From a phage, in assembly GCA_037431425.1 (NCBI GenBank), contig GCA_037431425.1_4129.2: a DNA stretch of 64,000 nucleotides. One strand, 5' to 3'. The notes under the pieces were generated by a model. The model worked only from the letters and a program-made list of their open reading frames with translations. It did not search any database and was not told the DNA's origin. The translations under genes were made by a program, and so were the position numbers. This document shows positions 34 through 27,200 of this stretch, in pieces (positions within the stretch are counted from its first letter, which is position 1; the number at the start of each line of letters is the position of its first letter).

Positions 34-2325
34 TTATCTAATTGTTACCAATGTTCTTCCGTCGAAACGTACATCAGGAGTTGAAGGTATACTAAACACC
101 ACGTTAGTGCCGTTAAACGTCACGCTATCGACCTCAACACGAGTATATACACCAGGGCTAATCTGTTCCTGTATCTCTGCTGTAACGATGTTTGAGGCTG
201 TTACTGTAAGGGTGTATGAATCACCACTTAATACCCATGATGAAATAGTAAATGCGTCTGTCCTAACTGAACCTGAACCAATAGGAACCCATTGCCCTTT
301 TACCTTTTGCATAGAGGTTCGTTCGGATGTAGAGTATGCAATCATACCATCGACACCCACTGAGTTATCAATGCTTGCTAGTACTGGCAACTGAATACCA
401 TATCTATTAAAACGTGTACGGATAGTTCCATTATCATAGATACTTACATCAGCATAATTACCCATAGAAAGTTTCAAATCCGCTCCATCCAATGTCATTG
501 AACTTTGATTTGTATTACTTTCTAGTGTGAGTACACCGTTAGCTAATAAATTGATATTTTTAAATTTATTACTATTTCCTTTAAAAGTTGTATTAGCATT
601 AAAAGTACTTGCACCGTTAACTACAATAGTATTTTCTGCTGTGTCGCCTAATATGGTATTACCATTCAAAGTGGTTTCACCATCTACTACAATATTGGAT
701 TCGAAAGTACTATTACCATTTACTACAAGATTGGATTTAAAAGTTCCATCACCATCTACGTCTACAGTAGAATGGAAAGTACTCTTACCATTAACCACAA
801 TAGTATTTTCTGCGGTATCACCCAATATGGTATTACTATGAACAGTCAAATTACCACTGGTGGTAACATTACTAGCTAGTGTATCACCATTCAATGTACT
901 TGTTCCATCTACTACAATATTGGATTTGAAAGTACTTTTACCATTAACCACAATAGTATTTTCTGGGGTTTCACCCAATGTTGTATTACCATGAACATTC
1001 AAATTACCACTAGCAGTAATATTACTAGCTAATGTATCACCAACCAATGTACTAGTACCATCTACTACAATATTACCATGAAAAGCACTTTCACCATTTT
1101 TGAATTCAACTTGTTCTTTATTCATTGAACTAAATGAAATGATATTACTACTTGCACTTATTCCAACATTAGTATTAGTTGGATTATCGAATCTCAGAAC
1201 TGGCGTTGACGCAGGTGATGATGTTGATTGATATAATGTCAATGTCGAATTGTTAATTCTAATACGTTCAGTTCCAGAAGTACTGAATCCAATAGCATCA
1301 TCAGCAGGATGAAAAATACCAGTATTCGTGTCTGACCATTTTTCAGGGTCATTACCTGGGTTGCTTACTGGGTCGTATGGGCTATTGTTAAATGCAATTG
1401 CTGGTGCGGTAGCACTACCATAGGTCACACCAAATCTACCACCTCCTACTGTACCATCGTCGTACATGGAATCACCAGTCCTACGTAAGCATTCAATTAC
1501 AACGTTGTCGATTGATGTTTGAACGGTTCCTGCATTCGTTCTAAATGGACGATTATTTGCAATCATGATAGTATTATCATATAATACTGAAGCTGCTGAA
1601 ATACTAGTTCTTGATTGACGAAGGCGAATGTTTTTATCTTCAGTGATAATGATCCAATCACCATCTGATAGTGCTGTTTGGTTCATTGGTACACCGGATG
1701 CAAACGGTTTAGTTAAATCTTCATCAGTTGCTAAGTTTACTAGCCCACTATGACCAGTACTGGGAATGGCGGTAGATACAATTCTCGCAAAAGCATATGT
1801 TACGAGTTTAGCACCAGAAATATTTGGATTAGAATCAACATAATATAAAATTTCTACCCAATCACCCTGACCAGTTGGGTTAGTTGGAGTGAATGTCACT
1901 GTACTTGTTGTTGGTTTATTAGCTTCAAAGTGTGCTTGTGCTGCATCTATAATACCACGTACAACATAATAATCACCACTAAGTGATGCTGTAGGTGCAG
2001 GTAGTGGACTTTGTGCCAAAGGTGGGTCTATATCATCAGGGATTGGATTATACGTACCAACAAATTGTAAACCACTAGTTACTGAATCTGGTAACTGTGA
2101 TGTAAGAAGTTTGCCGTTAGCATCTAAGTTTGCAAAACGTCTATATGCCATCGAGCCATCTTCAAAATCCAGAACACCCTCGAATGATTTCCATTCTTTA
2201 TTGTATCTAATCATCCCTGATCTTATTACGTCAGCGGTTTCTTTTGATGGTGCTTTTGGTAACTCTAAAAAAGATTTACTATCAATAATTACACCACCAT
2301 CACCTCTAATTCGATTTATACTCAT
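34..2325 (-). CDS. Tail fibre protein (763 aa) with internal ~50-aa tandem repeats
   Basis: Long ORF, Gly/Ser/Thr/Asn-rich; repeats of the form NIVVDGTSTL-GDTLASN-T-SGNL-VH-NT-LG-T-ENTIVVNGKSTF (3-4 copies); RBS GAGGAAA upstream of ATG at 2325. Confidence 0.6.
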   Translation of the reverse strand: MSINRIRGDGGVIIDSKSFLELPKAPSKETADVIRSGMIRYNKEWKSFEGVLDFEDGSMAYRRFANLDANGKLLTSQLPDSVTSGLQFVGTYNPIPDDIDPPLAQSPLPAPTASLSGDYYVVRGIIDAAQAHFEANKPTTSTVTFTPTNPTGQGDWVEILYYVDSNPNISGAKLVTYAFARIVSTAIPSTGHSGLVNLATDEDLTKPFASGVPMNQTALSDGDWIIITEDKNIRLRQSRTSISAASVLYDNTIMIANNRPFRTNAGTVQTSIDNVVIECLRRTGDSMYDDGTVGGGRFGVTYGSATAPAIAFNNSPYDPVSNPGNDPEKWSDTNTGIFHPADDAIGFSTSGTERIRINNSTLTLYQSTSSPASTPVLRFDNPTNTNVGISASSNIISFSSMNKEQVEFKNGESAFHGNIVVDGTSTLVGDTLASNITASGNLNVHGNTTLGETPENTIVVNGKSTFKSNIVVDGTSTLNGDTLASNVTTSGNLTVHSNTILGDTAENTIVVNGKSTFHSTVDVDGDGTFKSNLVVNGNSTFESNIVVDGETTLNGNTILGDTAENTIVVNGASTFNANTTFKGNSNKFKNINLLANGVLTLESNTNQSSMTLDGADLKLSMGNYADVSIYDNGTIRTRFNRYGIQLPVLASIDNSVGVDGMIAYSTSERTSMQKVKGQWVPIGSGSVRTDAFTISSWVLSGDSYTLTVTASNIVTAEIQEQISPGVYTRVEVDSVTFNGTNVVFSIPSTPDVRFDGRTLVTIR
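600..1100 (-). repeat. In-frame tandem repeats (~150-bp unit, 3-4 copies) inside the 763-aa fibre gene
   Basis: Motif CCATTAACCACAATAGTATTTTCTG recurs ~150 bp apart (near 795 and 945); matches the ~50-aa protein repeats; boundaries approximate. Confidence 0.5.
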
Positions 2326-2359
2326 TTAAATATTTCCTCAGAATAGATTATATATGATG

Positions 2360-2367
2360 TATTTATT
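2360..2367 (-). promoter_or_regulatory. T4-late-promoter-like box (AATAAATA) upstream of the 763-aa fibre gene
   Basis: Reverse complement of 2360-2367 is AATAAATA, 35 nt upstream of ATG at 2325; same box and spacing recur before other late genes here. Confidence 0.4.
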
Positions 2368-2370
2368 TTA

Positions 2371-2404
2371 GATAAAAGAAAAGGCCAAGTATAGACCTGG
2401 CCTT
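2371..2404 (-). terminator. Intrinsic terminator after the 259-aa gene
   Basis: Hairpin AAGGCCA (2381-2387) / TGGCCTT (2398-2404); on the minus-strand transcript it is followed by UUCUUUUAUC. Confidence 0.45.
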
Positions 2405-2410
2405 TAAAAA

Positions 2411-3190
2411 TTATTTATTACGTTCAGGTATCTGAATACCTTCATATACCCATTTAGCAGCTTGTTGTGCTTTATAAATTGCATCTGGGTCAGAATCATC
2501 AACTGCATCAATCGCTGCACATTGCTCTTCACATTCAGAAAATAGTTTTTCTACCATTGCTGATACTTCAGTATATAGTTGTGTCATTTCTTCTGCGGTA
2601 AGTTTTACAATAGCATCATCCAGTATGATAGTGACATTTTCAGCACCCGACACTACTTGTGTATAATAATTAAGTAGCATTTGACGACCTGCAAGATCGG
2701 TATTGTAGAGATGTTCTTTGAATTCATAACCTGAATTAACACGAAATGCTCTCTCAGATAATGTTCTTTCTTTTAAATCTGATTTTACATCAGCAATTGG
2801 TACATCAACAAAATTATAAGTTTTAAGTACTGTTAATGCTTTATATTCATCAGTTGCATCTTCCAAAAATTCCACCACTGGTTGCTTTTCATCTTTCAAA
2901 CGAACATATTCCAATTGTTGGCCTTTTGAATTCACATTGCCGACATTTTTATATTCTAACCACCAAAAACCTTCTTCTTTTCTCACTACATCATTCGGCT
3001 CTACTGGTGAACCATCAACACTGGAAATTCCGTACAGAGTTCTAATATCACTATAAAGATAACGATAAGTCTGAGTATCATCGGGAGTTGCACCTGGACG
3101 TTCTTTAAGACCTTTAACACCAATTGGATTAGTAATAATATTACCCAATTCATAATTTTCTTTTGAATCACCTTTCACATATGTGAACAT
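2411..3190 (-). CDS. Hypothetical protein (259 aa) between two fibre genes; possible fibre accessory/assembly protein
   Basis: ORF with RBS GAGGTAG upstream of ATG; function guessed from position only. Confidence 0.5.
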   Translation of the reverse strand: MFTYVKGDSKENYELGNIITNPIGVKGLKERPGATPDDTQTYRYLYSDIRTLYGISSVDGSPVEPNDVVRKEEGFWWLEYKNVGNVNSKGQQLEYVRLKDEKQPVVEFLEDATDEYKALTVLKTYNFVDVPIADVKSDLKERTLSERAFRVNSGYEFKEHLYNTDLAGRQMLLNYYTQVVSGAENVTIILDDAIVKLTAEEMTQLYTEVSAMVEKLFSECEEQCAAIDAVDDSDPDAIYKAQQAAKWVYEGIQIPERNK

Positions 3191-3213
3191 ATAACTACCT
3201 CATTTGTTATGAT

Positions 3214-3238
3214 GGTGTCACCAAGTATAGGTGACACC
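3214..3238. other. Perfect 9-bp inverted repeat GGTGTCACC-N7-GGTGACACC between fibre cistrons
   Basis: Seen directly; followed by TTTTATTATAATT on the plus strand (terminator-like for antisense transcription); in the minus-strand mRNA it is an intercistronic stem-loop 15 nt after the upstream stop. Confidence 0.4.
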
Positions 3239-3252
3239 TTTTATTATAATTA

Positions 3253-6200
3253 TTAAGCGGTACGTTGAGCAATAAACATATCTGCTACTGAACTTACACC
3301 ATCGTAAATTACCTGATAGATAGTTACAGAGTTTGCAGTTTTATTTAGAGTCCCATCAACAACAGCATATGTACCATCAGTAGTAAAGTTTCTATTACCA
3401 GTTGCATCTTGTTTAACATAAATGTATACTGATGATGCTTTTCCACCACCGATTAGACCAGTGATTGGTGCTAGAGTAGTATCTTGATCAAGAGTGATGA
3501 AGTATACGTTGCTAGTACCGTCAGGGGTCCAAGTACCATTCGGTGCAATAACAGAGGAAGTTACTTTACTTGGAATAACATCATACTTTTTGGTAGTTAC
3601 GGTTGTAGTGGCGAGTTCTGCGTTGGTTGTAGTTAACTTACCAGTAACAGTTACTTCTTTATCAAACACCGCATTTTCTTTGAAAGTTGGTGTTGAATTA
3701 ACAGTTAGTGTGTCAGTATTAGTATTACCTAAAACCACACTACCACTTGCTGTCATCAAACCAGAAACAGTTAGTGTACCACCAATAGTTGCATTACCAG
3801 TTACTGATGCACTAGCAAGTGTAGCTGCACCAGATGTAGTTATTGTTGTAACAGATGCTGCCTCTAGTGTGGTTGCACCAGTTGCGGTAAGTTTACCATC
3901 AACTACTAGATCACCAGTTACGGATGCACCACCGGACATTGTTACTGCCCCACCGAATGAACCAGTTGTAATTACTTCAAGTGTGTTACCTTTTAGTAAT
4001 TCAGTTGCTGTGATACTTGTACCAGCGGTAATGCTTGTACCCGCAGAAACAGTATTAGTTGCAGTTAAGGACTTCACAGCTACATCAGAGTTAGCTTGGT
4101 TAAGTTTAGCATTTAGAGTACCTGTTACTGTGAAGTCACCGTTGTTAACAACATTACCATTGATAGTTAGGTTGTTATTTTGTGAACCGACATCACCAAT
4201 TGTTGCTGATTTAGAAATTAACTCAGCACCAGCGGTAATGTTGCCAGCAGCACTGATATTGTTTGCTGCAACAACTGCATAAGGTTCAATTGTTTGACCA
4301 CTAACATCAATATCTGCGTTAATACCACCATCAACACGCAAAGAACCAGCAATATATGTATTAGGGAAAATCTGAACAGTTTCAGTGTGTTCACCGACCT
4401 GTGTACCAACAATAACATTAGATCCAGTTTTCACTGCACCAGAAGTTGTTAGAGAACCTACTGTTGCTTTGCCAGTAACACCTAGTGTACCGCCAACAGT
4501 TGCATTATTAGTTACTGCCAATGCTGTTCCTTCACCATTCAGTGTAATTGATGGAGCAGTTGCTTTACCAGTTACATCTAGTGTACCACCAACAGTTGCA
4601 TTACCATCTGAATGTATTGTTGTTGCAACAGAAAGACTGTTTGCAATTACATCCGCACCAGTCAAATCCAATGCACCTGGTGTTAATGTACCAGTAATGT
4701 TAACATTATTACCAAAGGTTGCTGCACCAGTTACATCTAGTGTAGTGCTAAATGTACCAGAAGTTGCAGAGATTGCACCAGATTCAAGTGAACCAACAGT
4801 GGTTTTTCCAGTTACACCCAGTGTACCACCAACTGTTCCATTTGTTGTAACTTCTAGTGTTCCAGTACTTAGATCTTTTGCTGTCACTTTACCAGATGCG
4901 TTAACAGTTGTTGTTGTAACACCACCACTTAGGGTGCTTGTCCCAGTAACACTGAGTGTTTTTGCTGCACTAACGCTGTTTACAGTAAGATCAGCACCTG
5001 ATAGGTCTAAACCACCTTCAGGAATAAAATTACCCTTAACTGTTAGTTGTTGAACAGTACTGTCACCAGTTACATCTAGTGTAGAAGCAGTCAAACCACC
5101 ATTCATACTTGCTGCACCAGTTACATCTAGTGTAGTTGTTACAGTTGCACTGTTTAGTGTGGAGCTACCGGAAATATTAGCACTAGGTGCAGTAATAGAT
5201 CCTTTTACAACTTGTACATCACCCGCAACAACATCAATACCACCAGCATTAACTGTTAGTTTTTCAGCAGTATTCAACGTACTTGAAATTGTTGTTGCAC
5301 CAGTTAAGGTTGTAGTTCCAGCTACACTTATGTTTCCAGAGATAGATGGATTACCTGTAATGTCACCAGTAGTGAGAACCAATTCAGTACCTACAGTAGT
5401 AGAACCAGTACTTTCTAGTGTTACACCAACGATGTTTGCAGAACTTAGGTTAATAGTACCATCAACAGTTAAGTTACCGTGAACTGTCGCATCACCAAGT
5501 GAATTTAATGTTTTCACTGAAACATCAGTTTTACTAAGGTCAATTACACCCGCAGTAAGTGTTCCAGATACTGCCAAATTACCAGTTATTGCTGTATTTT
5601 TAGTAATAGATACTGTTTCTGATGCTGACGTAATGGAGCCAGCAGTAAGTGCCCCACCAATGGTTGCATTGTTAGTTACGGTTAACGCTGTTTCTTCACC
5701 AGATAGTGTTAAAGAAATACCATTCATTTCACCAGTAATATTTGCCGATGCCGCAGAAATATCACCAGCAACTACCGCATTTGTTGCGTTTAGGGTTGTT
5801 GTGGTAATTTCAGTACTTTTCACTTTAGGTAGTGCGTTGATACCATCTTTACTATTAACTGTAATAATACCAGTACTTGTTAGAGATTTAACAGATACAT
5901 CAGCACCACTTAAATCAACTGTACCAGAAACAACTAGATCGCCACCAATATTAGCTCCTTCTGTTGTAGTGATTGATTTTGCATTAACTTCAGTGTTACT
6001 CAAATCAATTGCACCAGGTGATACAGTTCCAGAAACTGTGAGATTACCAGTAACTGTAGTATCATTAGAAATAGATACACCATCATCATTGCTAATTGTT
6101 GGGGTTTCAATTGTAACAGCTTTAACTTTACCAGAAGAAGTCATGTCAGCAACAGTAGATGCACCAGTAACATTCAAATTAGTAATATTTGCAGTTGTTG

Positions 6201-8796
6201 AACCAAGGGTTGCAATAGTTGCATCAGTACTTTCTAGTTTAGGAAGAACACTAGCAATAGAAGATTCGTTACTAACAATTGCACCAGTACTAGTTAAAGA
6301 TTTGACAGTAACATCAGCCGTAGTAAGATCTACTGTACCATTAACAGTTAGGTTACCACCAATAGTTGCACCAGCAGTAGTAGTAATGGATTTAGCATTA
6401 ACATCAGTTGTTGCTAGATCGATAGAACCTGGAATAACTGCACCAGTAACGGTTAGGTCACCAGTTACATTTGTATTATTGGAAATAGTGACACCACTTG
6501 CATTTGAAATGGTTGGGGTAACCAACGATGCAGTTGTAGTTTCACCAGTTACAGTTAAAGTTGACCCAACTAGAACAGATGAGCTTGAGTAAATTGTACC
6601 CAAATTAGCAGATCCGGTAACAGTTATATCATCAGCATTAACAGTAGTTGCCGTTATGGTAGTACTATTAAGTACTGGAAGTACGTTAGCATTAACAAGA
6701 TCATTACTTTTAACAATACCAGAAGTAGTTAATGATTTAACATTAAGGTTGGCTGCTGATAAATCAAAAGAGCCTTGAACTACTAAATCACCACCTATAG
6801 TTGCACCAGCAGTAGTAGTGATTGATTTAGCATTAATATCGGTAGTGCTCAAGTCTAGAGAACCAACAGTTAAGCTACCAGTAATATCAACATTTTCTGT
6901 AAAGTTAGTATTACCACTAATAGTTGGTGCAGTCAGAGTTGTTGCACTAATATTAGTACCGTTAATTGTTTGCCCACTTACAGTTCCACTCGCAGTGATA
7001 GTAGGAGCCGTTACTTCAGTAGATGCACTAATTGTTGGTGCAGATACAGAAGTTGTACCAGTAATAGTACCAGAACTTACTGAACCAGCGGATAATGCAC
7101 CAGAAAGAGTTGCAGTTGTACCAGCAATATCACCAGTAACAGTTAGTTTAGCACCCACGGTAGTGTTACCAGTACTTTCAAGTGTTGCACCTTTAATATT
7201 TGCTGCCGCGACAACAGAATTAGGTGTTAGATCTTGACCACTAACATCAACAGTTAGTCCAGTTACTGTTCCAGTAAATTCAACATCATTAAGAATTGCC
7301 TTACCACCAACTGTAAGGTATGGTGTACTTGGGTCTTGAGTATCGTTACCAGTGATAGTTAGATAATCTAGTTTGTTTAGGCCGTTACCAGTAATACCAT
7401 AAGAAGATAGTGATGCATTACCAAAGGTAGCAGTTTTAAGTACTTTCAATGTTGCTGGGGAAACCAACTCAGATTGAACTTCATTAGGTAAAATAACAGT
7501 TGGACGTTGATCTTGTGCGGTATATGCAAAACCTAGTTTCACAGCAGAATCTTGTGAATTTTGACCTAAACTAATAGCTTTAAAAGAAGCAGTACCGTTT
7601 AAACCAGTAATATTAGATCCTAGTGTAACACCACCAACTAAAGAAGACGCACCCTTTATATTTAAAGTGTTTGCATCAATATCATCAAGTTGGAAATCAC
7701 CACCAAATGTACCGGAAACATTAATATTATTAAAATTAGCAGTACCAGTACTTTCAATATCTGGAATGGTTGCTGTTCCAGTAACCTCAAAATCAGCAAC
7801 TTTAGTTTTACCTTTTGTCACTTCTAGAAGTGGGGTGTCAGGTGATTGTGTATCGTTACCAGAAACGGTTAGATAATCTAGTTTGTTTAGACCATTACCA
7901 GTAATACCATAAGAAGACAATGATGCATTACCAAAAGTAGCAGAAGTTAAAACTGTCAATTTAGCAGGTGACATTAATTCAGATTGAATTTCATTTTGTA
8001 GAATTACTGTTGGACGTTTATCAGGAGCACTGTAAGGGAAGCTCAATCTGGAGGTTTGTGATTCAGAGTCGGTTCCGATACGGATATCTTTAAATGTAGC
8101 AGTGCTATTAATACCAGTTACGTTAGCACCAAAAGTTACCGCACCTTTTTGATTAGATGCACCAGTAACATTCAATGTTTCAGCGTTTAAATCAGAAAGA
8201 TTAAACTCGCCACCTAGTGTACCACTAATATTCACATCTTGAAACTCAGCAGTGCCAGTACTACTGATGTCTTTAATTTTTGCAGAATTGGCAGTAATTT
8301 TATCAAATGCGGCAGTAGTTCCAGAATACGCAACTAAGTCACCTTTCATGCTCAAGTTACCTTTTGTACTTAAGTCCCCTTCCACGTTTAATGTACCGTT
8401 CATTGTTGCTGTCTCAGCAACTTCCAATTGTTTAACTTTAGTTGCTTGAAGTGTTGTTTTACCCTCAGATTGAGTGAGATCTGCACCCACCGTAACAGTA
8501 CCGTTAAATGTGGCGTTTGCATTAATTGTTGCTGTATCAGAATCACCATCTTCACTACCGATTGTAGTATTACCTTTAATATCAAGACCACCACTTAGTG
8601 TTGCTTTTCCAGCAACATCTAATGTGGATGTAATATTGGCAGTTTCGGTTTCAATGGCAGTAAAAGTTGCATTTGTGAAAGATATACTACCATTTACAGT
8701 TAGGTTATTCTTGAATACAGCATTCCCTTTGACTAAAAGATCCTTACCAACCGTACCGGAGCCAGTAATATCTAAGTCAGTTTTTATTGAGTACAT
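3253..8796 (-). CDS. Very large fibrous protein (1847 aa), probable long tail fibre/adhesin
   Basis: 5.5-kb ORF; Thr/Ser/Gly/Asn/Val-rich low-complexity sequence; two families of long in-frame repeats; RBS GGAGGG 5 nt upstream of ATG at 8796. Confidence 0.65.
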   Translation of the reverse strand: MYSIKTDLDITGSGTVGKDLLVKGNAVFKNNLTVNGSISFTNATFTAIETETANITSTLDVAGKATLSGGLDIKGNTTIGSEDGDSDTATINANATFNGTVTVGADLTQSEGKTTLQATKVKQLEVAETATMNGTLNVEGDLSTKGNLSMKGDLVAYSGTTAAFDKITANSAKIKDISSTGTAEFQDVNISGTLGGEFNLSDLNAETLNVTGASNQKGAVTFGANVTGINSTATFKDIRIGTDSESQTSRLSFPYSAPDKRPTVILQNEIQSELMSPAKLTVLTSATFGNASLSSYGITGNGLNKLDYLTVSGNDTQSPDTPLLEVTKGKTKVADFEVTGTATIPDIESTGTANFNNINVSGTFGGDFQLDDIDANTLNIKGASSLVGGVTLGSNITGLNGTASFKAISLGQNSQDSAVKLGFAYTAQDQRPTVILPNEVQSELVSPATLKVLKTATFGNASLSSYGITGNGLNKLDYLTITGNDTQDPSTPYLTVGGKAILNDVEFTGTVTGLTVDVSGQDLTPNSVVAAANIKGATLESTGNTTVGAKLTVTGDIAGTTATLSGALSAGSVSSGTITGTTSVSAPTISASTEVTAPTITASGTVSGQTINGTNISATTLTAPTISGNTNFTENVDITGSLTVGSLDLSTTDINAKSITTTAGATIGGDLVVQGSFDLSAANLNVKSLTTSGIVKSNDLVNANVLPVLNSTTITATTVNADDITVTGSANLGTIYSSSSVLVGSTLTVTGETTTASLVTPTISNASGVTISNNTNVTGDLTVTGAVIPGSIDLATTDVNAKSITTTAGATIGGNLTVNGTVDLTTADVTVKSLTSTGAIVSNESSIASVLPKLESTDATIATLGSTTANITNLNVTGASTVADMTSSGKVKAVTIETPTISNDDGVSISNDTTVTGNLTVSGTVSPGAIDLSNTEVNAKSITTTEGANIGGDLVVSGTVDLSGADVSVKSLTSTGIITVNSKDGINALPKVKSTEITTTTLNATNAVVAGDISAASANITGEMNGISLTLSGEETALTVTNNATIGGALTAGSITSASETVSITKNTAITGNLAVSGTLTAGVIDLSKTDVSVKTLNSLGDATVHGNLTVDGTINLSSANIVGVTLESTGSTTVGTELVLTTGDITGNPSISGNISVAGTTTLTGATTISSTLNTAEKLTVNAGGIDVVAGDVQVVKGSITAPSANISGSSTLNSATVTTTLDVTGAASMNGGLTASTLDVTGDSTVQQLTVKGNFIPEGGLDLSGADLTVNSVSAAKTLSVTGTSTLSGGVTTTTVNASGKVTAKDLSTGTLEVTTNGTVGGTLGVTGKTTVGSLESGAISATSGTFSTTLDVTGAATFGNNVNITGTLTPGALDLTGADVIANSLSVATTIHSDGNATVGGTLDVTGKATAPSITLNGEGTALAVTNNATVGGTLGVTGKATVGSLTTSGAVKTGSNVIVGTQVGEHTETVQIFPNTYIAGSLRVDGGINADIDVSGQTIEPYAVVAANNISAAGNITAGAELISKSATIGDVGSQNNNLTINGNVVNNGDFTVTGTLNAKLNQANSDVAVKSLTATNTVSAGTSITAGTSITATELLKGNTLEVITTGSFGGAVTMSGGASVTGDLVVDGKLTATGATTLEAASVTTITTSGAATLASASVTGNATIGGTLTVSGLMTASGSVVLGNTNTDTLTVNSTPTFKENAVFDKEVTVTGKLTTTNAELATTTVTTKKYDVIPSKVTSSVIAPNGTWTPDGTSNVYFITLDQDTTLAPITGLIGGGKASSVYIYVKQDATGNRNFTTDGTYAVVDGTLNKTANSVTIYQVIYDGVSSVADMFIAQRTA
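5570..6910 (-). repeat. ~420-bp in-frame tandem repeat, 3 full copies plus a partial, inside the 1847-aa fibre gene
   Basis: Protein repeats beginning G-ID/LDLS-T-VNAKSITTT-GA-IGG-L-V-G-VDL; DNA motif GATTGATTTAGCATTAA recurs near 5980, 6400 and 6830; boundaries approximate. Confidence 0.5.
7250..8280 (-). repeat. ~510-bp direct duplication (2 copies, ~170 aa each) inside the 1847-aa fibre gene
   Basis: DNA motif GTTAGATAATCTAGTTTGTTTAG at ~7358 and ~7868; protein segments ...RPTVIL-NE-QSEL-SPA-L-VL-(S/T)ATFGNASLSSYGITGNGLNKLDYLT... nearly identical. Confidence 0.55.
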
Positions 8797-8868
8797 TTAT
8801 ACCCTCCATTATAACCTTGTTAATATGTATATATTTAGTTTTATTCTCCTGTTAACTAATAATTTATC

Positions 8869-8903
8869 AAAATAAAAAACCAGACTTATCTTAATAAGTC
8901 TGG
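8869..8903 (-). terminator. Intrinsic terminator (bidirectional) between the 300-aa and 1847-aa fibre genes
   Basis: 10-bp stem CCAGACTTAT (8880-8889) / ATAAGTCTGG (8894-8903), 4-nt loop, A-run upstream and T-run downstream. Confidence 0.6.
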
Positions 8904-8912
8904 TTTCATTTT

Positions 8913-9815
8913 TTACTTACCAGAGATAACAATCTTCCCACTGAATGTAACATCAGAAGTAAAGGTTACGTCACCTGTGTTGCTAATTTGTGTATCCGTT
9001 ACAACTAATTCAAATGGAGATAACGAAACACTGCCAGGTGTTTTATTTGCATAAATCGAAACATACAAATTTTCTGGTGATTGTTTGTGTTCAGATGCTG
9101 GAATCGTGATGATGAATTTATCCTCATCTTTATTAGAAATCCAATCAGCTTGGTTTACCAATTTACTATAAGGTGCTGTCATTGATGTTGCTCCTATAAT
9201 GTTTACTATAACATTTTTATAATCCGTAATTTCCCCAATTACATCTATTGTAATATCACCCGTACCGCTTACTACCACAGAGGTTTGAAATATTGTATCC
9301 AATGTTACACCACCAGGATCGCCATGTAGTTGTATCATGATATCTGCACCACGGCCATGAACAGATGCTGGTAATGTGTATGTATAATGATCAGTAGTGT
9401 CTGGTACTAATGTAAATTCAGAAACGGGTACAGTTTCTGATGTTACATATGAACTATCAGTTTGTTGTGCATTTCCTTTAAATGATTTCCAAATACCAAG
9501 ATCTTTAATATAAATTTGAAGAACATTAGTTTCATCAACTAAAAAATACACATTGCCATCTAACCCAATAGATTCATCCGGGGCACTGGTCCCACTCAAA
9601 ATACCAGAACTTCCAGAGCCACTATGTGCGTTTAGATATCCTAACGTAACCAGATGTGTGTTAGAGGTCGGTTCACCTGCTGAAATTGGAAGAAGTTTTG
9701 TTCCTGAGTAGTTTTGTATTTGCACGACACTACCATTTGTGGTAATCTGTGCACCATTCTTCCCAAGAATGAAGGATTTCTTCATTGTTCCTTCTAAATT
9801 AGAAAAAACTGCCAT
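8913..9815 (-). CDS. Receptor-binding-protein-like protein (300 aa) sharing an N-terminal module with the adjacent tailspike
   Basis: N-terminus MAVFSNLEGTMKKSFILGKNGAQI... parallels MAVFSNFEGTMKPKMILGKNGASI... of the 714-aa protein; RBS GGAG upstream. Confidence 0.55.
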   Translation of the reverse strand: MAVFSNLEGTMKKSFILGKNGAQITTNGSVVQIQNYSGTKLLPISAGEPTSNTHLVTLGYLNAHSGSGSSGILSGTSAPDESIGLDGNVYFLVDETNVLQIYIKDLGIWKSFKGNAQQTDSSYVTSETVPVSEFTLVPDTTDHYTYTLPASVHGRGADIMIQLHGDPGGVTLDTIFQTSVVVSGTGDITIDVIGEITDYKNVIVNIIGATSMTAPYSKLVNQADWISNKDEDKFIITIPASEHKQSPENLYVSIYANKTPGSVSLSPFELVVTDTQISNTGDVTFTSDVTFSGKIVISGK

Positions 9816-9831
9816 TTTAATTTAATCTCCT

Positions 9832-11973
9832 TTATGGTAGGGTTATGTACGTTACTGGCTGTGCGGCTTTTAATAATGCACCAGAGGCAGTTGCTGTTAT
9901 GATGGGATCTGCAATATCAATTCTATATACATTATTAACAACATATACTGCACGAGTTATATACGTTTTCAAATCATCACCATTTTCACCAGCACCAGAT
10001 ATAATGATCTCAGTTCCAGCCGCTTTTGCATATTGATTATCGCCCCATGACACACCCAATGCTTCTATATACGTTTGTCCTACCATCGTTTGTCTGATTG
10101 TGTCATATTTTCCAAAAAATGATCCACCCACTGTTACAATATATTTTCCACCCGATTTTTTATGTATAATCGTTCCTTCTGGGAAGTATCTTCCACCAGG
10201 GAAAGTATCATATGGAATATAATATTGTTCAACTACAGGTATTAGTACTGGGCCACGATGACCAGTACCGTCAATAGCAGTTGTTACTTTAAAATTATTA
10301 GATGATTGGTCGATTCTATCTACATACATTTTAGAAAAACTATATTTTGAAACATTACAATCATCTTGAACAACACAGTTAGTCCAATTAGTATAAGTAT
10401 ATTTAGAGCGAGTATACATTCCCCCACCCTCACCTTCAGTGGAAAGGTGTTGTCCTATTACATCTAATTCTTTTGTTCTGATATCACTAAACTTAGATGA
10501 AGATGGTAGACCACGCCAAAGAATTTTAGAACAAGTGATATTACTTAATTCTGTACTATTCAGCCAATTATCAGAACCAGAAGTATAAACGAATACGGAA
10601 GACTCTGGTATATAGAGATTGGAAATTTTAAAGTTTCTAGGTGGTCCAGCAAATCGACCAGCAGTTACCCCCCAGTTAATAGATACCATACGGTTTGTGA
10701 TTGTAGGATCATTAAGTAAATGTCCGGTTAAACCATCAATTACAAACTCTTTTGAGCCATAAGTTATCACACCAGCAGTTGTTAATCCTGTACCAACAGA
10801 AATTAAAGATGATGGGTACACCTCATTGTCAAGTATTTTGAAATCCATCCCCAATTCGACATGGATGCATTGTCTAACATTATAAAGTCTATTATTCTTA
10901 ATAACAAAGTTTCTAACATATTGAGTATCAGGGGCATCCAAATCATAAGGACCAGAACCAGCTACACCGATACCAATACCCCAGTTTGAAAGCGGGATTG
11001 GTGCATCAGAGCCATCAACATTTTCAATTATATTACCTTCGATCACAAAACCATCAGGATAATGTGAGTTAATAACGTTCAATTCAATTGCATCCCCGTA
11101 GATATCATGAATGTGGTTATATGAATAACGACCGACTTTCATTTTCTCACCAGTACCCTGTTGGAGAACGCCATATTTGCATTTAGTCATTTCATTAAAG
11201 CAAAAATCAATTGTACCTGGTTGAGTCATACCTTGCATCAAAAACGCAGCAGTACTGGTAATGTTTATAAATTTATTAAAATAAAATTTACCATCCCCAC
11301 CAAAGAATTTCAGATAACATCCAGTAAGTGTGGTGAATTGAATTTGTGAATTAATAACGGATATCATAGTACCACCATTACCAGTAATAGTGCCACCAAA
11401 CCAAGTTACATCTTCCAAATATACTGCTTTTTTGATACGATAATTACCACCTGCTTGAATTTGTATTTTATTTTCTTTGGCATAAGTTGCACACAAATTT
11501 ACAGCTTCAGTGTCATCGGTTTCCCCATCTCCTTTCGCACCAAATTCTTCTGGTGTTATATAGAACTGTGCTTGTTGAACTGTGCCACCAGTAATAAGGC
11601 CAATGAAATCACCACCATTTTTACTTGATAGTACTTTTTTATTAATGTATAGTGATTTAATCCATGTGCCATTTGTTTTTACGAAAATATCAACAATACC
11701 ATCTTCATCAATTTGAAAATAAGTGTTATTGTTTTTTCCAATATCACCAGACGGTGGTTGAACGCCAAATAAGGCATTTGGATTATCTTCAAGGTATCTA
11801 ACATTAACTGCTGAATCTTGGTCTGATGGTGTTCCTATCTTTAGTGGTAGGAACTTTTCACCGAGATAATCTTTTATCGATACGGAATCATTGACGAAAT
11901 TTATCGAAGCACCATTTTTACCCAATATCATTTTTGGTTTCATGGTTCCTTCAAAATTAGAAAATACTGCCAT
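9832..11973 (-). CDS. Tailspike/depolymerase-like protein (714 aa), pectate-lyase-superfamily beta-helix
   Basis: Motif ITPEEFGAKGDGETDDTEAVN typical of pectate-lyase-3 tailspikes; start moved from track 12168 to ATG at 11973 (RBS AAGGGGGA, homology to neighbour begins there). Confidence 0.6.
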   Translation of the reverse strand: MAVFSNFEGTMKPKMILGKNGASINFVNDSVSIKDYLGEKFLPLKIGTPSDQDSAVNVRYLEDNPNALFGVQPPSGDIGKNNNTYFQIDEDGIVDIFVKTNGTWIKSLYINKKVLSSKNGGDFIGLITGGTVQQAQFYITPEEFGAKGDGETDDTEAVNLCATYAKENKIQIQAGGNYRIKKAVYLEDVTWFGGTITGNGGTMISVINSQIQFTTLTGCYLKFFGGDGKFYFNKFINITSTAAFLMQGMTQPGTIDFCFNEMTKCKYGVLQQGTGEKMKVGRYSYNHIHDIYGDAIELNVINSHYPDGFVIEGNIIENVDGSDAPIPLSNWGIGIGVAGSGPYDLDAPDTQYVRNFVIKNNRLYNVRQCIHVELGMDFKILDNEVYPSSLISVGTGLTTAGVITYGSKEFVIDGLTGHLLNDPTITNRMVSINWGVTAGRFAGPPRNFKISNLYIPESSVFVYTSGSDNWLNSTELSNITCSKILWRGLPSSSKFSDIRTKELDVIGQHLSTEGEGGGMYTRSKYTYTNWTNCVVQDDCNVSKYSFSKMYVDRIDQSSNNFKVTTAIDGTGHRGPVLIPVVEQYYIPYDTFPGGRYFPEGTIIHKKSGGKYIVTVGGSFFGKYDTIRQTMVGQTYIEALGVSWGDNQYAKAAGTEIIISGAGENGDDLKTYITRAVYVVNNVYRIDIADPIITATASGALLKAAQPVTYITLP

Positions 11974-11986
11974 TATGACATCCCCC

Positions 11987-13114
11987 TTAAATATTGTCTT
12001 GGATAGGTTGGGCCGGAGCTTGCCATGAAAGAGTACAAATAATTTCCATTTTACCATAAGGACTGTTATTAACTGAATCATTAAAAACACATGAAATGAT
12101 TTCATCAACATCAGATACTTCATGATTTGTTTCATTAACAATAAAACGCATCTGGCGATTAATATCAAAGTAGGTTATTGGTGCAATGACTGTACCACCA
12201 ATATTTTCGTTGGCTTCACCACCAAATCGAACAAACATATCAGTTACTGGTTGTGAATAAGGTTGTAAAACATTTACATCTATATTAGAAACTACATATC
12301 CAGCAGGACAAGTCCCAATAACTAATAGAGCATTAGTCCATGATCTATCAATAACGTTTCTAATTGTTACAGTATCTTTGCCTGGTGTACCCGGTTCACC
12401 TTGCTTACCTTGAATACCTTGTGGACCTTCTTTGCCACGGAATAAAATACCACTACTCCATTCTTTTGATGGTGGGGTGGTAGTTGTTACTTCATCCACA
12501 TAATAAAGCTTGCCATCAGTGTTGTTATAGAAACAATAATCAATTGGGAGGTTTTCAATACTTGGAAATTGATCACCACTATCGTCAATATGAAAACGAC
12601 CACGTGGACCTTGCTCACCACGGAAAGGGACACCATCACTCCATGTAGCTGTTACTTTTTGATAAAAATATAGTTTACCATCTTGTGTATTGTAAAATGT
12701 ATAGTTATCAAAAAGACCAGAACTTGGAAAAGTAGTTCCTGCACTATCGATATGAAAAGGCTTACCAGCTTCACCAGTATCACCTTTACCAAATTCAACA
12801 CTAGTCCAAGTACTGGTTTCTTCTTGTGCATCATTTGATTTAAAATACAGAGTACTTGTGTTATTTGCCAAACTAAGATAGCACCAGCCAAGCGGTTCAC
12901 CAACTTTAAATTTATCAGATGGAACTTCAAAACCAATCTCATTAGGATAAAAGTTTTTACCGTTCTGACCATTTTGTCCCACAACAAGACCGAGATCTTG
13001 AATTGTATTATCTGTATATGTTACAATTAAATGACCAGCATTATTAATAACTAGACTTTTGATGCCTGAGTTATTACATGAACCACTGGACCCATTGTTA
13101 AATGTAATTGTCAT
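11987..13114 (-). CDS. Collagen-like tail fibre protein (375 aa)
   Basis: Gly-X-Y runs (GEQGPRGRF; GKEGPQGIQGKQGEPGTPGKD); internal duplication FYNTQDGKLYFYQKV / FYNNTDGKLYYVDEV; RBS AAGGGA. Confidence 0.55.
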   Translation of the reverse strand: MTITFNNGSSGSCNNSGIKSLVINNAGHLIVTYTDNTIQDLGLVVGQNGQNGKNFYPNEIGFEVPSDKFKVGEPLGWCYLSLANNTSTLYFKSNDAQEETSTWTSVEFGKGDTGEAGKPFHIDSAGTTFPSSGLFDNYTFYNTQDGKLYFYQKVTATWSDGVPFRGEQGPRGRFHIDDSGDQFPSIENLPIDYCFYNNTDGKLYYVDEVTTTTPPSKEWSSGILFRGKEGPQGIQGKQGEPGTPGKDTVTIRNVIDRSWTNALLVIGTCPAGYVVSNIDVNVLQPYSQPVTDMFVRFGGEANENIGGTVIAPITYFDINRQMRFIVNETNHEVSDVDEIISCVFNDSVNNSPYGKMEIICTLSWQAPAQPIQDNI

Positions 13115-21220: not shown

Positions 21221-24200
21221 TTACTTAACTATTAATATTTTTTGAATATCATTACCACGAACTCGTAGACTGTTAGTATACACAGAAAGGTCTATTGTAT
21301 AACTATTTTGAGTATAACGTTTAAACTTATCATAACCGCCCAAATTAATTCCGTTGAAAGAATATGTAGTATCATGTTTGAAATCGTGTTCTGCACTGTA
21401 CATTACTCCACGGAGTAAGTTGTTTGTATTTCTAACTTCAACTTTTTCATATCCAATCGATATAATGTCACTCTTGTTAGCAGCGGAGCCTGATAACACA
21501 TTATTTCTAACATTATAATGGCTTACGGAAAGAGGTTGTGCTACATAAGTTGTGTTTTCTTCACTAATGGTTGTTATGTTAGTGATGGTAGCGTCAGCCA
21601 CATCAATATACATACTATCAACCATTGGATATTCATACACCCACACACCTTCATTATTTTTTGTCGGTTTGATATCTTTCGCATCATATTCAATCACGTT
21701 AATTTCTAAACAATCCGGCATTTTAGTTCTTACTAATTCACTAAGAACACCTTCCCCTGTAATTGGTAGATTATAACCGTTGTCTATAGTAATACCATCA
21801 TCATTAAATATTTCATTTGATACAACCCAAACATCAACATCATCAGGTGTTACTCCGTCATTATACTTACCACCATTTAAAGTAGTATCATAAAAAACGT
21901 CATAATTAATCACATCAATGGTGTAATTTCTGTTTTGCTCATATAATTTAATATCACCCTTGGTAAATTCTGGGTCAGCAAATGTTCTAACACGAACAAT
22001 GTTCAATGCAAGATGTTGTACTGGCTGATTCAGTTGTCCAAGTGTGATGTTATCATATCGAAGAACATTACCAGAACTATCAACCAACTCAATTGTTTCT
22101 TTTCCTGTAGTTCTTACAGTGAATAGAATAGGAGTTGTATTATGTTTGATATTAGACACACGTAATATGGTTTCCCATGTACGATTTTGATATCGAATAA
22201 AATCTTCACCATCCGGCGTGAAAATCATCACCTTATCACCATCAGATAAGTCACTGTCAACGATTTCAGCCTCAGTTAAGCTATTAATAGAACGTACACG
22301 ATAGAAATATTTTTCTTCAAACGGTGATGCCGTTTTATTAATATCATGTTCAATCTTAGCATATGAAGGAATACTAACAATTGCTTCTGTATGTTTATAT
22401 GGGTTGATAATTGCCATACCCTCGGTTTTATATCTGCTATTATTACGCAATTGCACTAGTGATTCAGTATCAAATCCATAACCATCAACAGTGAATCTAA
22501 TATGCCCAACTGCACGACTAGCTGGATTTATTTCAGATATATCGATAATATAAGGATCAACTTCGTCATCTTTAACTTCCCATTTGATAGCTGAAGTTTG
22601 TGATTCTAATGCAAGGTTGTCAAATGCATTCATATCATTGAAGAACTTAGCTTCAGCAATACTATCAATTATATATTGATAATCCGAATACATAGGGTTA
22701 TTTTGATCTTGTGGTAAATCATCTAGATTTATTTCAGCAAGTTTAATCATTTCACCATTAGTAATGAAATAATCTTCCATGAAATCATCAATACTTTTAT
22801 CATCTGGTATACTTTGGTATTCACCATTGATATTTAAGTAGACATGTTTTCTTGGCATCATAGTAATAGCATAGATATCAATAGGTGTTTTTGAAAGAAT
22901 TTCTTCTGCTTTTTCATACATATCAGTAGAGTCTTTATCAAACAACCCTCTCATGGCTGCCAGTACATGGACCGCATCGGAATAGAAACGTGTATCACCA
23001 CCAATTTCATCATAACGATAAACATATACACCGTATTCAACTTCAAGTTTCACTTTAATATCATGTTCAGATGCATCTGGATATTTTTCTGTAATAAAAG
23101 AAATATATTTTTCATATAATTCTTTACTTATTTCAAAATATCCATAGTTATAATCATTACTTGAAGAAAAACCTAATGGTAGTCTAGTACTTGGGTTATC
23201 ATTATAAACCAAACCACTAAATCCACAGCCAACCTCATCATGAATCTTATCATCACTGATATCTTTATAAAGTTTCAAACGGTTTGCTAATGTATTGTAC
23301 TGAACATAGTGTCGAAGGTCAGTAAACATTTCATTATGCGTTGATTCGTTATAAATGCGTTCAAGTGTAGCAGTAAATTCATCAGTTGCTTCTAAATCAT
23401 CAGCATGTTCTTTATACCACTGGTTTACACCATTTGCAGTTCCTAGTGTTACATCTAATTCTGGATAGTACGTTTGTAATAGATACGCATTAACCAAGTC
23501 AAATGATTGTTCATTATACACAGGGTAAGAATATATATAACGTTGTAATTCATAGGTATTAACAGAATCTTTTTCATTTGATTGATACTTATTATTAACA
23601 CTAATCAACTCATTAATGTTTGCCAAATCTTTATTCGGTTTACATTGAATATTATCATAATGCATAATAATATCAATTTCTTGAAATCTTCTATTTGGTG
23701 CAATAAAATCACTAGGCAGAGAACCTACTTTCTCCCATTTTTTAGTGGTTTCATTATATTGAGCGTACTCATAATCCCAAATATCCTTTTCAGTTTTAAC
23801 CCACGAACCATCAACAAAAATATACCCATTAGGATCTAAATCATTACAAAGACCTTTGATTAAGTCATCATCAGACGTTTTTTGTTCTATCTGTGAACGG
23901 ATTTTTGTACGATATGGTTTCACCTCTTCAAAGTACTCAACAATTTGGTTAATCAAATTATCATTTGAATAGTTTTGTACCAAAGATTGTTCCAAACCAA
24001 CAATATAGATATAGGATGTTTTAAATACCCAATCAACAACACCCTGTTCTACGTGTACATATTTGACCATATCAAAAACAATTTCACTTTGGTGTAAATC
24101 GAAAGAATTTTTTAGCAAAGCAAGTGCTTTTCTAATATTAATTTCACGATTACTAAGTGAACCGTCCTCATTATGAACATTATAATCTACATAAAACAAA

Positions 24201-27200
24201 TCGTTAAGCTCAATAGTACTACGTTGTCGCCCAATAGCTTTCCAATAAATTGAATCACGTGATTGAGATTTGATATATAAAGTCCAAATGTTTTCACTAT
24301 CTGTGACTCTAATTATATCACCAACTTGATAGTTTTTAGCATTTGCTTCTTCTAAACTTATCTCTTGGATGTAAGCAGTTTTGCTATCATACCCAACATC
24401 ATACCAATCTGCATAAGACCAGTATTGAGTCATATCTAATGATGTTCCGAGTGATTCAACATAATCCGATTGCTTAATCATTTTATGTTGTCCTTCACCT
24501 TTATTTTCTAAAGTTATAGTAACAACACTACCTGCATTAGCTGGACTATTCATTAACTGAATATATCCGTTTTCATCGAAGTGAATAAAATAAACAGCAC
24601 TAGTTGATAATGGAGTCGGTAGATAACCGCTAGAACTTAAAATAACAGCGTCATTTTCTTTAAATTTATCCTTTTCAACTGCAATTACAAGTTCATTATT
24701 ATAAGTTAATACACGGAACGAAACCTCATTAGGGTTAACTTCTGTAGTTTTAACATTAAACACATCTTCCATAACAACACTATTAGTAGTTATGTTTTGT
24801 GATCTATAATAATTATTTGCACTTTCTACAAAGTTTCTACGTGCCTCTATTATATTCTGGAACCAAGTTTTATTAGAGCCTAAACCAGTGCCAACTTCTG
24901 GATATAATAAATCTACAACCTTACCTGACTTCGTAGTTTCTTGACCAATTAGAGAGTTCCACATAGAGTCCCAAATTAGTGGGTTAAAATTGTAACTTTC
25001 ACCCTCTTTACAAAGTTGATATTGATCATGTTTAACAACTTCTGTATTGTCCATATAGTAAGAAATAGTCAAAACACTAGTATCATCATTAACTTCAAAC
25101 TGCATATTACTAAGAATAAAAGAGTTTTCATTAATTGGTGCGAACCAAGGAATGTTCAACTGTGATGGATCTTTAATAATACGTGCAATGTCAGTACATG
25201 ATTTTGTTCTGGTATGAATAGGTGGTACATAAATTGTATCACGTACCCAGAAATAGTATTTTGTTACATAACTGTCAGTGGAGCTATCATATTCCAAAAA
25301 TGTACTATAATTATCTTCAAGTGCTGTTCCACTTGGAAGATACATATTATTATTTTTGTTTTTCTTAGCAACATCTTTACAGTACTTATCCCAGTTATAT
25401 GGTTCTACTGGTGAACAAACCCATTCCAACACATCAATAGTACTATGTGGCAACAAACGACCCCAGTTGTAACGTTTATATTCATTGGTTGCGTCAATAT
25501 CAACATTTCCATCTGCATCATAAATGGCACGAGTATAATCCAAATAAAAAGCGGTGCTAGTGTTCCACCATACTTGACCAACTTTTTCAGCACCCCACGC
25601 CTGAACCAATTCGCCATTACTATTATATTGAGCAGGGTCGATTGGTGAAGTATATGTTACGTTTTGCATTGCTGCACCAGGAATAACACCATTAATTGGG
25701 TCATAAACATTTAGATATAATGCAGTAATGTTTGTACGTTCATCATATGTAGTTGGACGTTCAAACAAAGTACTTTGTGGTGCTTTAAAACTATATTTTT
25801 TATCAATATATGCTTGACGCTCTTCAGTACTCACAAAACGCGAAACATAACGATACAAACGAGGGCGTGTATCTGGGTCAGTAAATTCGATATTAATTGA
25901 AGTATCAAATGGAACCACCATAACTTTGGAATCATCCCCAGCAGTATAATATTGACTTTCTACTGTTAAAGTATCTGGCATAAAGTTAGTTTCGTCCACA
26001 AAATAATAGTAATCACCATCTTCAAGAGGGATATCATCAGATAGAGTTACTTTACAGAATTTCTCAGCGTAAACATCTGTGGTTTCGATTGGTGTAATAG
26101 AAACCATTTTAACATTAGTGTCAATTAATTCAAAAATGTTCCATAACCCATTTCCATCTTTGAACATCCATACTGATTCAGGATTTTCACCTTTACCATT
26201 GATATACAACATACGGTCATTGAATGCAGTACTGAAATCTTTCGTAGTATAAGATACTTCATCTAATGTAACTGGACCAATATCAGGCAGTTGGATGTGT
26301 TCACTTCTACCACTACGCATTGGGAAAGAGAATTTACCATTTGGACGAGTAATCCATTGTGGGTCTTTTCCTTGTTCACCAAAGAATACAATATTGTTTC
26401 CATTGCCATTTGATGTTGCATTTTCATCAAAAGACATCATTTGTGGCTGCTGCTTAAATTGGTCATTAATCAATTTAAATTGAAGGTTTTTCTTTCCATC
26501 GATGTTACCATATGTACCAACTTTAAACGCCCATTCTTGTAATGCTTTATATTCATCAGTATCATAGGATTTAGAAACACGAAGAACACGTTCTAAAACT
26601 TGGTTTGTACCTTTGTCATGAATAAATCCTTTATAGAAATCAACACGACTTACATCACTACTAATCATACGTTGTAGATAATCACGAGATTGATAACCAA
26701 TCAAATGGCTAGACAATTCTTGTAATTGTACATCGCTAACGGGATGTTCATTGTCATAGTAATGTTGAAAATCTGTTACTAGAGTTTCAAATGATGGTAT
26801 TGTACCAGATTCCAAAATAATAAAACCAGGTGCTTGTAATCTACCAGTCCATGAACCAGTAATGTACCCATACATTTTAATTAGTTCCTGGATAGAACCA
26901 TAAGTTGGTTGATAGATATAATCACCAAAAATAGTCTTATCATCAAATATAACAGCATGTTCATATGAACACAAACTTAAACGGATTAATGCAATACGCT
27001 TATTAGAATCGGTTGTTCTAACAGTGAATATATTACCAATACGTGAAGTTTCGATTTCATATTGACGAATACCTTGGTTATTATCATCAAGCAATGACCA
27101 CACACCACCATTATTTTGTGTAATAGACTGTACTGAACCAAAATCCGAACCAAACTTAGCATTTGCAGCACTTGGTGTACAAGAGATAAATTCGCCAGTT

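Follow-up and report, generated by a model that had tools for sequence, protein, structure and literature searches.

Serial in-frame modules in the giant tail-fibre gene of an Asteriusvirus-type jumbo phage, and relatives that differ by whole units

Results

The fibre gene and its source

The stretch of DNA under study (hereafter the window; 64,000 nucleotides of phage DNA, GenBank assembly GCA_037431425.1, contig GCA_037431425.1_4129.2) carries on its minus strand, at 3253..8796, a gene for a tail-fibre protein of 1847 amino acids, which an earlier note, made from the sequence alone, had described as holding two families of long in-frame repeats. The ORF list (ORF, open reading frame) confirms the gene, and its product matches the 'tail fiber protein' family PHROG 4549 with E = 1.8e-218. 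Its 86%-identical orthologue in phAPEC6, gp256 (180 kDa), was represented by 15 unique peptides in mass spectrometry of purified virions and was named among three candidate tail-fibre proteins (PMC7247149), and a more distant homologue, CBB_226, gave 10 peptides in virions of CBB (PMC5259590). Detection of these two relatives in virions argues that the gene encodes a real virion protein, and the N-terminus MYSIKTDL, which is shared family-wide, fixes its start codon.

At the nucleotide level 3253-8796 is matched only by jumbo myophages of E. coli and Salmonella, and the annotated records among these belong to the genus Asteriusvirus. The gene is 99.3% identical to that of ph0011 in an alignment covering 91% of its length, and approximately 87% identical to those of 121Q, phAPEC6, G17, Sharanji and others; over the full-length protein, identity is 96% to ph0011 and 86% to phAPEC6 and 121Q. 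Judged by these matches, the source of the window, whose G+C content is 33-38%, is an Asteriusvirus, that is, an E. coli jumbo myophage like 121Q, PBECO4 and phAPEC6, and the direct counterparts of the fibre gene are phAPEC6 gp256, 121Q gp571 and ph0011 WAE77162. A protein search returned 24 homologues at E <= 1e-96, and on this footing the fibre is a member of the giant fibre family of Asteriusvirus and Rak2-like phages (PHROG 4549), to which phAPEC6 gp256, 121Q gp571 and CBB_226 belong. The features of the gene are collected in Table 1.

Table 1. Features of the fibre gene and of the strand opposite to it, with positions in the window
Feature	Position	Strand	Residues	Remarks
Conserved N-terminal region	8410..8796	-	1-129	MYSIKTDL...; near-invariant columns in 25 homologues
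Isolate-specific 18-aa insertion ATMNGTLNVEGDLSTKGN	8335..8409	-	130-147	
Repeat A1	7765..8274	-	175-344	170 aa/510 bp; HMM 332.6 bits
Repeat A2	7255..7764	-	345-514	170 aa/510 bp
Junction motif VDVSGQDLTPNSV	7213..7251	-	516-528	Best-conserved module boundary of the family (motif map)
Repeat B1	6526..6957	-	614-757	432 bp; HMM 207 bits
Repeat B2	6112..6525	-	758-895	414 bp; HMM 195 bits
Repeat B3	5683..6111	-	896-1038	429 bp; HMM 217 bits
Repeat B4	5392..5682	-	1039-1135	Partial and degenerate; HMM 47 bits
Repeat C1	4738..5076	-	1241-1353	113 aa; HMM 167 bits
Repeat C2	4402..4737	-	1354-1465	112 aa; unit type duplicated in the PBECO4 lineage
Conserved C-terminal domain	3256..3813	-	1662-1847	...TWTPDGTSNVY...FIAQRTA; kept in 24 of 24 family members
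Spurious antisense ORFs	3494-4282, 4385-5053, 5159-5482, 5633-6592, 6818-7237, 8474-8875	+		All in one frame
aa, amino acids; HMM, hidden Markov model.

Three families of in-frame repeats

With unit limits set by HMMs built from the window's own copies, the shaft of the protein contains contiguous, head-to-tail units of three families, two of A, three and a half of B and two of C. The A units are 62% identical in amino acids and 66% in nucleotides, with an alignment score 40 standard deviations above that of residue shuffles (the control for all alignment z-scores given here), and they are most alike at 7336-7512 versus 7846-8022, where identity is 82%. Family B comprises three full units of 138-144 amino acids and one partial unit, at 44-56% amino acid identity and z = 17-25; B1 is 48% identical to B2 and 44% to B3, and the pair B2/B3 stands at 56% (z = 25). 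The HMM match of the partial unit B4 covers residues 1057-1135, corresponding to the first 85 of the 144 unit positions, and scores z = 8 against B3. The third family, C (4402-5076), had not been singled out in the earlier note, and its two units share 51% of their amino acids (z = 14). A duplication of about 510 bp had been placed there at roughly 7250-8280, which is essentially exact for the A units (7255-8274). A unit of about 420 bp repeated 3.5 times had been placed at roughly 5570-6910; the repetition is real and in frame, but its limits lay 50-180 bp away from those found here (array 5392/5683-6957).

The same units are visible in the DNA. When the gene was compared with itself in 150-nucleotide windows, the best identity was 83% at an offset of 510 for family A and, for family B, 73% at 414 with unit B2, 70% at 435, 69% at 849, 64% at 465 with unit B4 and 63% at 879, against a top diagonal of 56.7% in 20 codon-shuffled genes. 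All of the significant offsets are multiples of 3, and the repeats are therefore in frame. A BLASTP self-comparison of the full-length protein yielded nothing beyond the identity match, and fragments of 120 amino acids were searched against the whole protein instead; these recovered the A offset of 170 residues (181-300 versus 351-470, 61%, E = 2e-48) and the B offsets of 138-143 residues (747-840 versus 885-978, 65%, E = 6e-37; 605-719 versus 748-864, 51%). Tandem Repeats Finder (TRF) picked up three short arrays but missed every long repeat, the copies being too diverged for it.

It could be argued that such repeats are mere compositional similarity within a low-complexity protein rich in Thr, Gly, Ser and Val. 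The bias is indeed strong (T 18.5%, G 11.4%, S 10.3%; T, G, S, A and V together 59%), and many weak off-diagonal matches of 25-35% identity join nearly all parts of the shaft. Nevertheless, unit pairs within a family score z = 14-40, whereas pairs between families reach only 1.8-4.6, the DNA diagonals (63-83%) all exceed the codon-shuffle maximum, the unit boundaries are sharp and reproducible, and relatives differ by exact units. As such, we find an explanation from composition scarcely credible, and the self dot-plot that the earlier note had called for displays true in-frame diagonals, not only short compositional similarity. The pervasive shorter periodicity mentioned in the same note is likewise real, with hydrophobic residues autocorrelating at lags 6, 12 and 18, but it is weak; residue identity at lag 6 gives z = 4.1.

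Between and beyond the repeats lie elements that are shared across the family. The junction motif VDVSGQDLTPNSV that follows the A array has a degenerate counterpart, of the type (V/I/L)D(L/V)S..D....S(V/I/L), once or twice inside every B and C unit, and three motifs of this kind in the long tail fibre (LTF) of the Pectobacterium myophage phiTE can be aligned with it. The C-terminal domain is homologous to the C-terminus of the same phiTE protein (9cuy_g 617-792 versus query 1662-1844, i-Evalue 3.3e-11, by phmmer against the PDB), and like the N-terminus it hardly varies across the 25 aligned sequences.

Copy number and hybrid units in related phages

A comparison of copy number among relatives, which had also been proposed beforehand, reveals differences of whole A and C units. 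By global alignment, CRJP21 (2129 amino acids) carries an additional 170 residues within the A array and 112 within the C array, and UB (1959 amino acids) an additional 112 within the C array, every aligned insertion in these two proteins being an exact unit. Counts with the HMMs agree, giving three A units in CRJP21 and three C units in both UB and CRJP21. Wider counts were taken as tblastn 'places' per genome in a phage collection; by this measure 18 close relatives have two A units and CRJP21 and JP4 have three, and the extra C2-type unit is found in PBECO4, UB, CRJP21, JP4 and SD-6_S16 (by tblastn for JP4, PBECO4 and SD-6_S16). Three A units are also present in the distant metagenomic homologues P0002, P0011 and P0013, and an identity matrix of the units assigns at least three independent origins to the third A copies.

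The added copies are hybrids of their neighbours. In the middle A copy of CRJP21, nucleotides 1-330 of the unit are 85-100% identical to the third copy (A2 type) and nucleotides 330-510 are 88-97% identical to the first (A1 type); in the middle C copy of UB, nucleotides 1-210 are 87-98% identical to copy 3 and nucleotides 240-336 are 88-95% identical to copy 1. Each of the two thus changes parent just once, with register and frame preserved, as expected when two genomes misalign and cross over unequally between adjacent units, and the switch in CRJP21 falls in the very block in which A1 and A2 are most alike (the equivalent of 7336-7512 versus 7846-8022 in the window). This is direct evidence that the extra A unit of CRJP21 and the extra C unit of UB arose by unequal crossing-over.

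One branch of Asteriusvirus, that of fEgEco12 and vB_Ec-M-J, has 4-5 A-unit places per genome. In vB_Ec-M-J there is a second, shorter fibre protein (P0004, 1049 amino acids) with two A units of its own and B-like units; the reading frame at 8445-10193 of this genome (L007; EcMJ_304) encodes 583 amino acids and may be a gene other than that of P0004.

Recombination has also acted between genomes, the identity profiles marking the fibre gene as a mosaic with other Asteriusvirus genomes. Identity to ph0011 is approximately 100% over 2301-8271 and then 37-90% from 8272 to about 9500, with the breakpoint at 8272 lying within 3 nucleotides of the start of A1, and 121Q is approximately 100% identical only in 6301-7300 and 72-94% identical elsewhere. 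Over 8335-8409 identity to ph0011, UE-S1 and 121Q is just 37-39%. This segment includes the insertion ATMNGTLNVEGDLSTKGN, which is found in none of ph0011, 121Q, UE-S1 and UB, overlaps an 18-bp tandem array of 2.6 copies at 8335-8381 (TRF) and produces the consecutive hexapeptides NGTLNV, EGDLST, KGNLSM and KGDLVA, its 18 residues being exactly three added hexapeptides. A deletion of 5 amino acids follows shortly downstream, at about residue 175.

Age of the repeats and reliability of their number

Copies within the window are 57-66% identical in nucleotides, third positions at identical four-fold-degenerate residues agree in only 42-55% of cases, and exact matches between copies reach 23 nucleotides at most. 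Most homologues have two A units, even where overall identity falls to about 30% (at 30-39%, the Salmonella protein P0005 and metagenome proteins), and tblastn finds two A places in CBB and GAP32 and one, at E <= 1e-10, in the more distant phages of Erwinia, Serratia, Yersinia and Xanthomonas. Judged by this divergence and distribution, the repeats are ancient in-frame duplications, not recent expansions. High-frequency, slippage-prone contingency repeats, considered as another possibility, are ruled out by the same nucleotide identities, by the shortness of the exact matches and by the blindness of TRF to the long arrays.

Repeats of this length inside a gene are a well-known cause of mis-assembly, and the earlier note had raised the concern that the number of units could have been collapsed or expanded in this contig. 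We consider this very improbable, and the concern unrealistic, for the copies differ at 34-43% of their nucleotides and share no more than 23 identical bases, so that short reads would resolve them and a collapse is unlikely; moreover, the frame is open throughout its 5.5 kb, and ph0011, an independent isolate from Brazil, has equal unit counts within the region of near-complete identity (2301-8271).

Antisense reading frames

The long plus-strand ORFs opposite the fibre gene (Table 1) had been attributed to the repeats, an attribution that does not hold. Across the gene the frame that holds them contains 29 stops, whereas the remaining plus-strand frames have 122 and 222. A stop in the antisense frame requires a sense codon that begins with TA or CA after a suitable third base, and 29 of 29 lie opposite Gln (17), Tyr (10), His (1) or the gene's own stop codon; of the protein's residues, 2.9% are Tyr, Gln or His. 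The longest open antisense run is 370 codons, compared with 232 +/- 70 (maximum 510) in codon shuffles of the gene that lack the repeats. Since these shuffles also yield long antisense runs, amino acid composition and not the repeats explains the ORFs, which are spurious and due to the scarcity of Tyr, Gln and His.

In the GenBank/RefSeq record of PBECO4 (KC295538 / NC_027364) the fibre gene itself is unannotated, and three coding sequences for a 'hypothetical protein' are placed on its antisense strand (317-1363, 1679-1969 and 4250-4993). Two of them match the positions of window ORFs 3494-4282 and 6818-7237, and by position all three appear to be spurious antisense ORFs of the kind described above. 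The PBECO4 fibre gene seems to be split over the ends of the linear record, with a 'YadA domain protein' coding sequence at 115-450 of the record.

Searches for related folds

The phiTE LTF (PDB 9CUY/9MJN, 793 amino acids) is the only relative with a solved structure, found by phmmer at E = 1e-26 and by a family profile at E = 7e-70. The likeness extends to one A-like unit (chain residues 180-352), three junction modules of the form 'VDGxDIxPxSV' and the C-terminal domain. The phiTE protein differs in being under half as long, in having a single A-like unit and nothing recognisable as a B or C array, and in its N-terminal anchor (modelled residues 14-171), which fails to align with the MYSIKTDL N-terminus here. 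It is a trimer attached to the baseplate wedge, of which residues 14-171 were modelled; for the remainder AlphaFold3 predicted an extended beta-helix that has flexible points, the whole fibre measuring 512 Å, and it has been proposed to contact two other fibres (PMC11972413).

Among Pfam families only Bactofilin (PF04519) was found, at 40.8 bits against a cutoff of 27.9, a score summed over weak stretches: none passes the 0.01 limit, five weak ones appear at E <= 1, and the 86%-identical homologue P0001 scores 12.9 bits. Bactofilin, in which a right-handed beta-helix makes one turn about every 18 residues, resembles the fibre in its six-residue periodicity and in the 18-residue quantum of the insertion, but it is a cytoskeletal protein of one domain of about 100 amino acids, unlike a virion fibre of 1847. 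A search of NCBIfam with the fibre protein gave no match. Precomputed Pfam annotation of the homologues P0001-P0025 lists PF26209 (and, in P0025, also PF26208).

Several orthologues are labelled 'long tail fiber proximal subunit' in GenBank, and homology to T4 gp34 was accordingly considered and rejected. BLASTP gave E = 1.4 to gp34 and 0.15 to gp37, no gp34 chain was returned by sequence and profile searches of the PDB, and no gp34 family matched in Pfam or NCBIfam. By these comparisons the label is without sequence support and is an annotation habit. T4 gp34 resembles the protein studied here in being a very long myophage fibre protein with internal repeats and, as is proposed for the present fibre too, a mostly beta shaft.

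Neighbouring genes

The fibre gene sits in a baseplate and fibre cluster that encodes baseplate wedge, hub-lysozyme and tail-sheath-related proteins, a 3327-amino-acid virion protein and a colanic-acid-degrading tailspike. Structural genes lie downstream of it, and a 300-amino-acid structural protein and the tailspike, a neighbour of the fibre gene, lie upstream; the gene order is the same in ph0011, UB, CRJP21, 121Q and UE-S1, and the PHROG matches of the window's neighbouring genes agree. Directly downstream (2411-3190, minus strand) lies a gene whose 259-amino-acid product, a structural protein, contains a DUF4376 domain (E = 8.8e-8) and weakly matches tail-fibre PHROGs; this product is possibly the fibre's tip or a distal partner of it. 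The tailspike ORF (9832-12168, minus strand) begins with a TTG, and it shares about 180 nucleotides with the upstream tail gene (11987-13114, minus strand). Relatives annotate the tailspike as 2142 bp (713 amino acids), and an internal ATG near 11973 is therefore its probable true start. Farther along, at 21221-31204 on the minus strand, the 3327-amino-acid ORF matches PHROG 10938 ('virion structural protein') from end to end; its size and the order of the genes make it the probable orthologue of phAPEC6 gp245 (382 kDa), a protein that was detected in virions (PMC7247149).

Discussion

We consider it likely that the giant fibre of Asteriusvirus is an assembly of serial modules which arose by ancient in-frame duplication, which form a beta-rich shaft, and whose number has been raised in some lineages by misaligned recombination. 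In such a scheme the protein would run from an N-terminal region (residues 1-129) that is presumably the attachment end, through two A modules, a linker, 3.5 B modules, further beta-repeat sequence and two C modules, to the C-terminal domain, the shaft being rich in beta-strands with a six-residue beat. Tandem duplication in frame would have created the modules, which would since have diverged to 44-62% amino acid identity, and misaligned homologous recombination during phage replication would add (and presumably remove) one whole unit at a time and leave behind a hybrid junction copy, each event altering the protein by an exact module. Patches of 80-87% nucleotide identity survive between neighbouring units, which argues that misaligned recombination of this kind takes place occasionally. 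By homology to the phiTE LTF, by the 6- and 18-residue periodicity and by the 18-residue size of the insertion, the protein would be a trimer with a beta-helical fold, the summed Bactofilin score being one more hint of the fold.

The consequences for the fibre can be estimated at 0.054-0.065 nm per residue, a range based on the dimensions of T4 gp34 and on the 512 Å and 793 amino acids of the phiTE LTF. At this rise each A unit would lengthen the fibre by some 9-11 nm, each B unit by 7-9 nm and each C unit by 6-7 nm, and fibre length may in turn affect adsorption or host range.

Several observations weigh against this reading or against parts of it. The proposition of the earlier note, that such repeats let fibre length change by unequal recombination, stands for families A and C, in which exact units and hybrid copies are found, but not for family B, which displays no change of copy number among approximately 20 close relatives. 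Furthermore, copies in the window share at most 23 identical bases, so that further unequal exchange should be infrequent. As regards host range, E. coli O157:H7 is host to UB and JP4, which have the extra C unit, and also to E9.1, which is without it. The structural part of the argument is likewise less than firm. AlphaFold2 models of the monomer, made with an alignment of 25 sequences, have a mean pLDDT (predicted local distance difference test score) of 50.8 for the A units (residues 161-528) and 58.4 for the B units (residues 593-1139), and a Foldseek search of the PDB with the better of the two returned nothing at E < 1. Given these low-confidence models and this lack of a match, the beta-helical trimeric shaft is a proposal by analogy. 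In addition, the part of the phiTE LTF that is homologous to our fibre protein is unmodelled in the cryo-electron microscopy map. The top weak Foldseek matches, the left-handed beta-helix enzymes GlmU and LpxD, were set aside as carrying no evidential weight.

The constancy of B, together with the wide conservation of two A units, also means that selection may fix the number of modules rather than exploit its variation. A different account treats the modules as structural or docking elements of fixed number, such as nodes at which other fibres or tailspikes join a heavily decorated virion; their number would be under purifying selection, and the extra units of a few phages would be neutral or slightly deleterious accidents and not an adaptive means of altering host range. 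Such an account would sit well with the retention of two A units in homologues down to about 30% identity, with the invariant Gly, Asp, Tyr and Asn positions (DYL..GN) of each unit, with the unchanging number of B units in Asteriusvirus, with the several other fibre, tailspike and structural genes nearby and with the two fibre contacts proposed for the phiTE LTF. Against it, third A copies have been kept in at least three separate lineages and the extra C unit is present throughout the PBECO4 lineage, which argues that additional units are tolerated and inherited. On balance we hold docking elements of fixed number to be an unlikely explanation, and modules whose number can change by recombination to be the better one.

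Comparable arrangements are known from elsewhere. In the adenovirus fibre shaft, and in BadA and other trimeric autotransporter adhesins with their neck/stalk repeats, the length of a trimeric rod follows from how many serial modules are joined in frame, and motif shuffling in gp37 of T-even phages was reportedly described by Sandmeier in 1994. The fibre examined here resembles these systems in its in-frame serial modules and in the alteration of their number by recombination between units, and some relatives of the gene are in fact annotated as 'YadA domain protein' or 'autotransporter'. It differs from them in that its units are long (112-170 amino acids) and strongly diverged, and changes in unit number should therefore be rare. 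No homology to the adenovirus shaft, gp37 or BadA-type proteins was found in Pfam or NCBIfam.

The identity of the appendage itself merits a tentative comment. It is conceivable, though in our estimation improbable, that the protein forms the hair-like 'whiskers' of about 120 nm seen on jumbo phages of the phAPEC6/CBB type, not the six short fibres of the baseplate. The whiskers of CBB measure 119 +/- 10 nm and its baseplate fibres 28.6 nm (PMC5259590), and 1847 residues at the rise used above would make a rod of approximately 100-120 nm. The N-terminus, which is unlike the baseplate anchor of the phiTE LTF, would be in keeping with a whisker protein. However, GAP32 has a homologue and no whiskers have been reported for it (PMC5259590), and the sole solved relative, the phiTE LTF, is bound to the baseplate. 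Were the protein a whisker after all, whisker length would be set by how many A, B and C modules it contains.

That fibres built of repeats change by recombination is textbook phage biology, and no expectation is overturned by the present results; in the literature searched, we found no description of repeats or of copy-number variation in this particular fibre. For the Asteriusvirus jumbo phages, a group under development for therapy, the analysis contributes a map that places each module of their largest fibre protein precisely. It also corrects annotation, in that the 'gp34-like' label is unsupported, and in that spurious antisense ORFs, which composition has produced, appear to be deposited as genes in PBECO4. 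The natural hybrid junction units indicate that unequal crossing-over still works between units only about 60-66% identical. Last, the series formed by 121Q/phAPEC6, UB and CRJP21/JP4, with 2-3 A and 2-3 C units, is well suited to a test of how fibre length bears on adsorption, and may likewise serve to assign the protein to its appendage.

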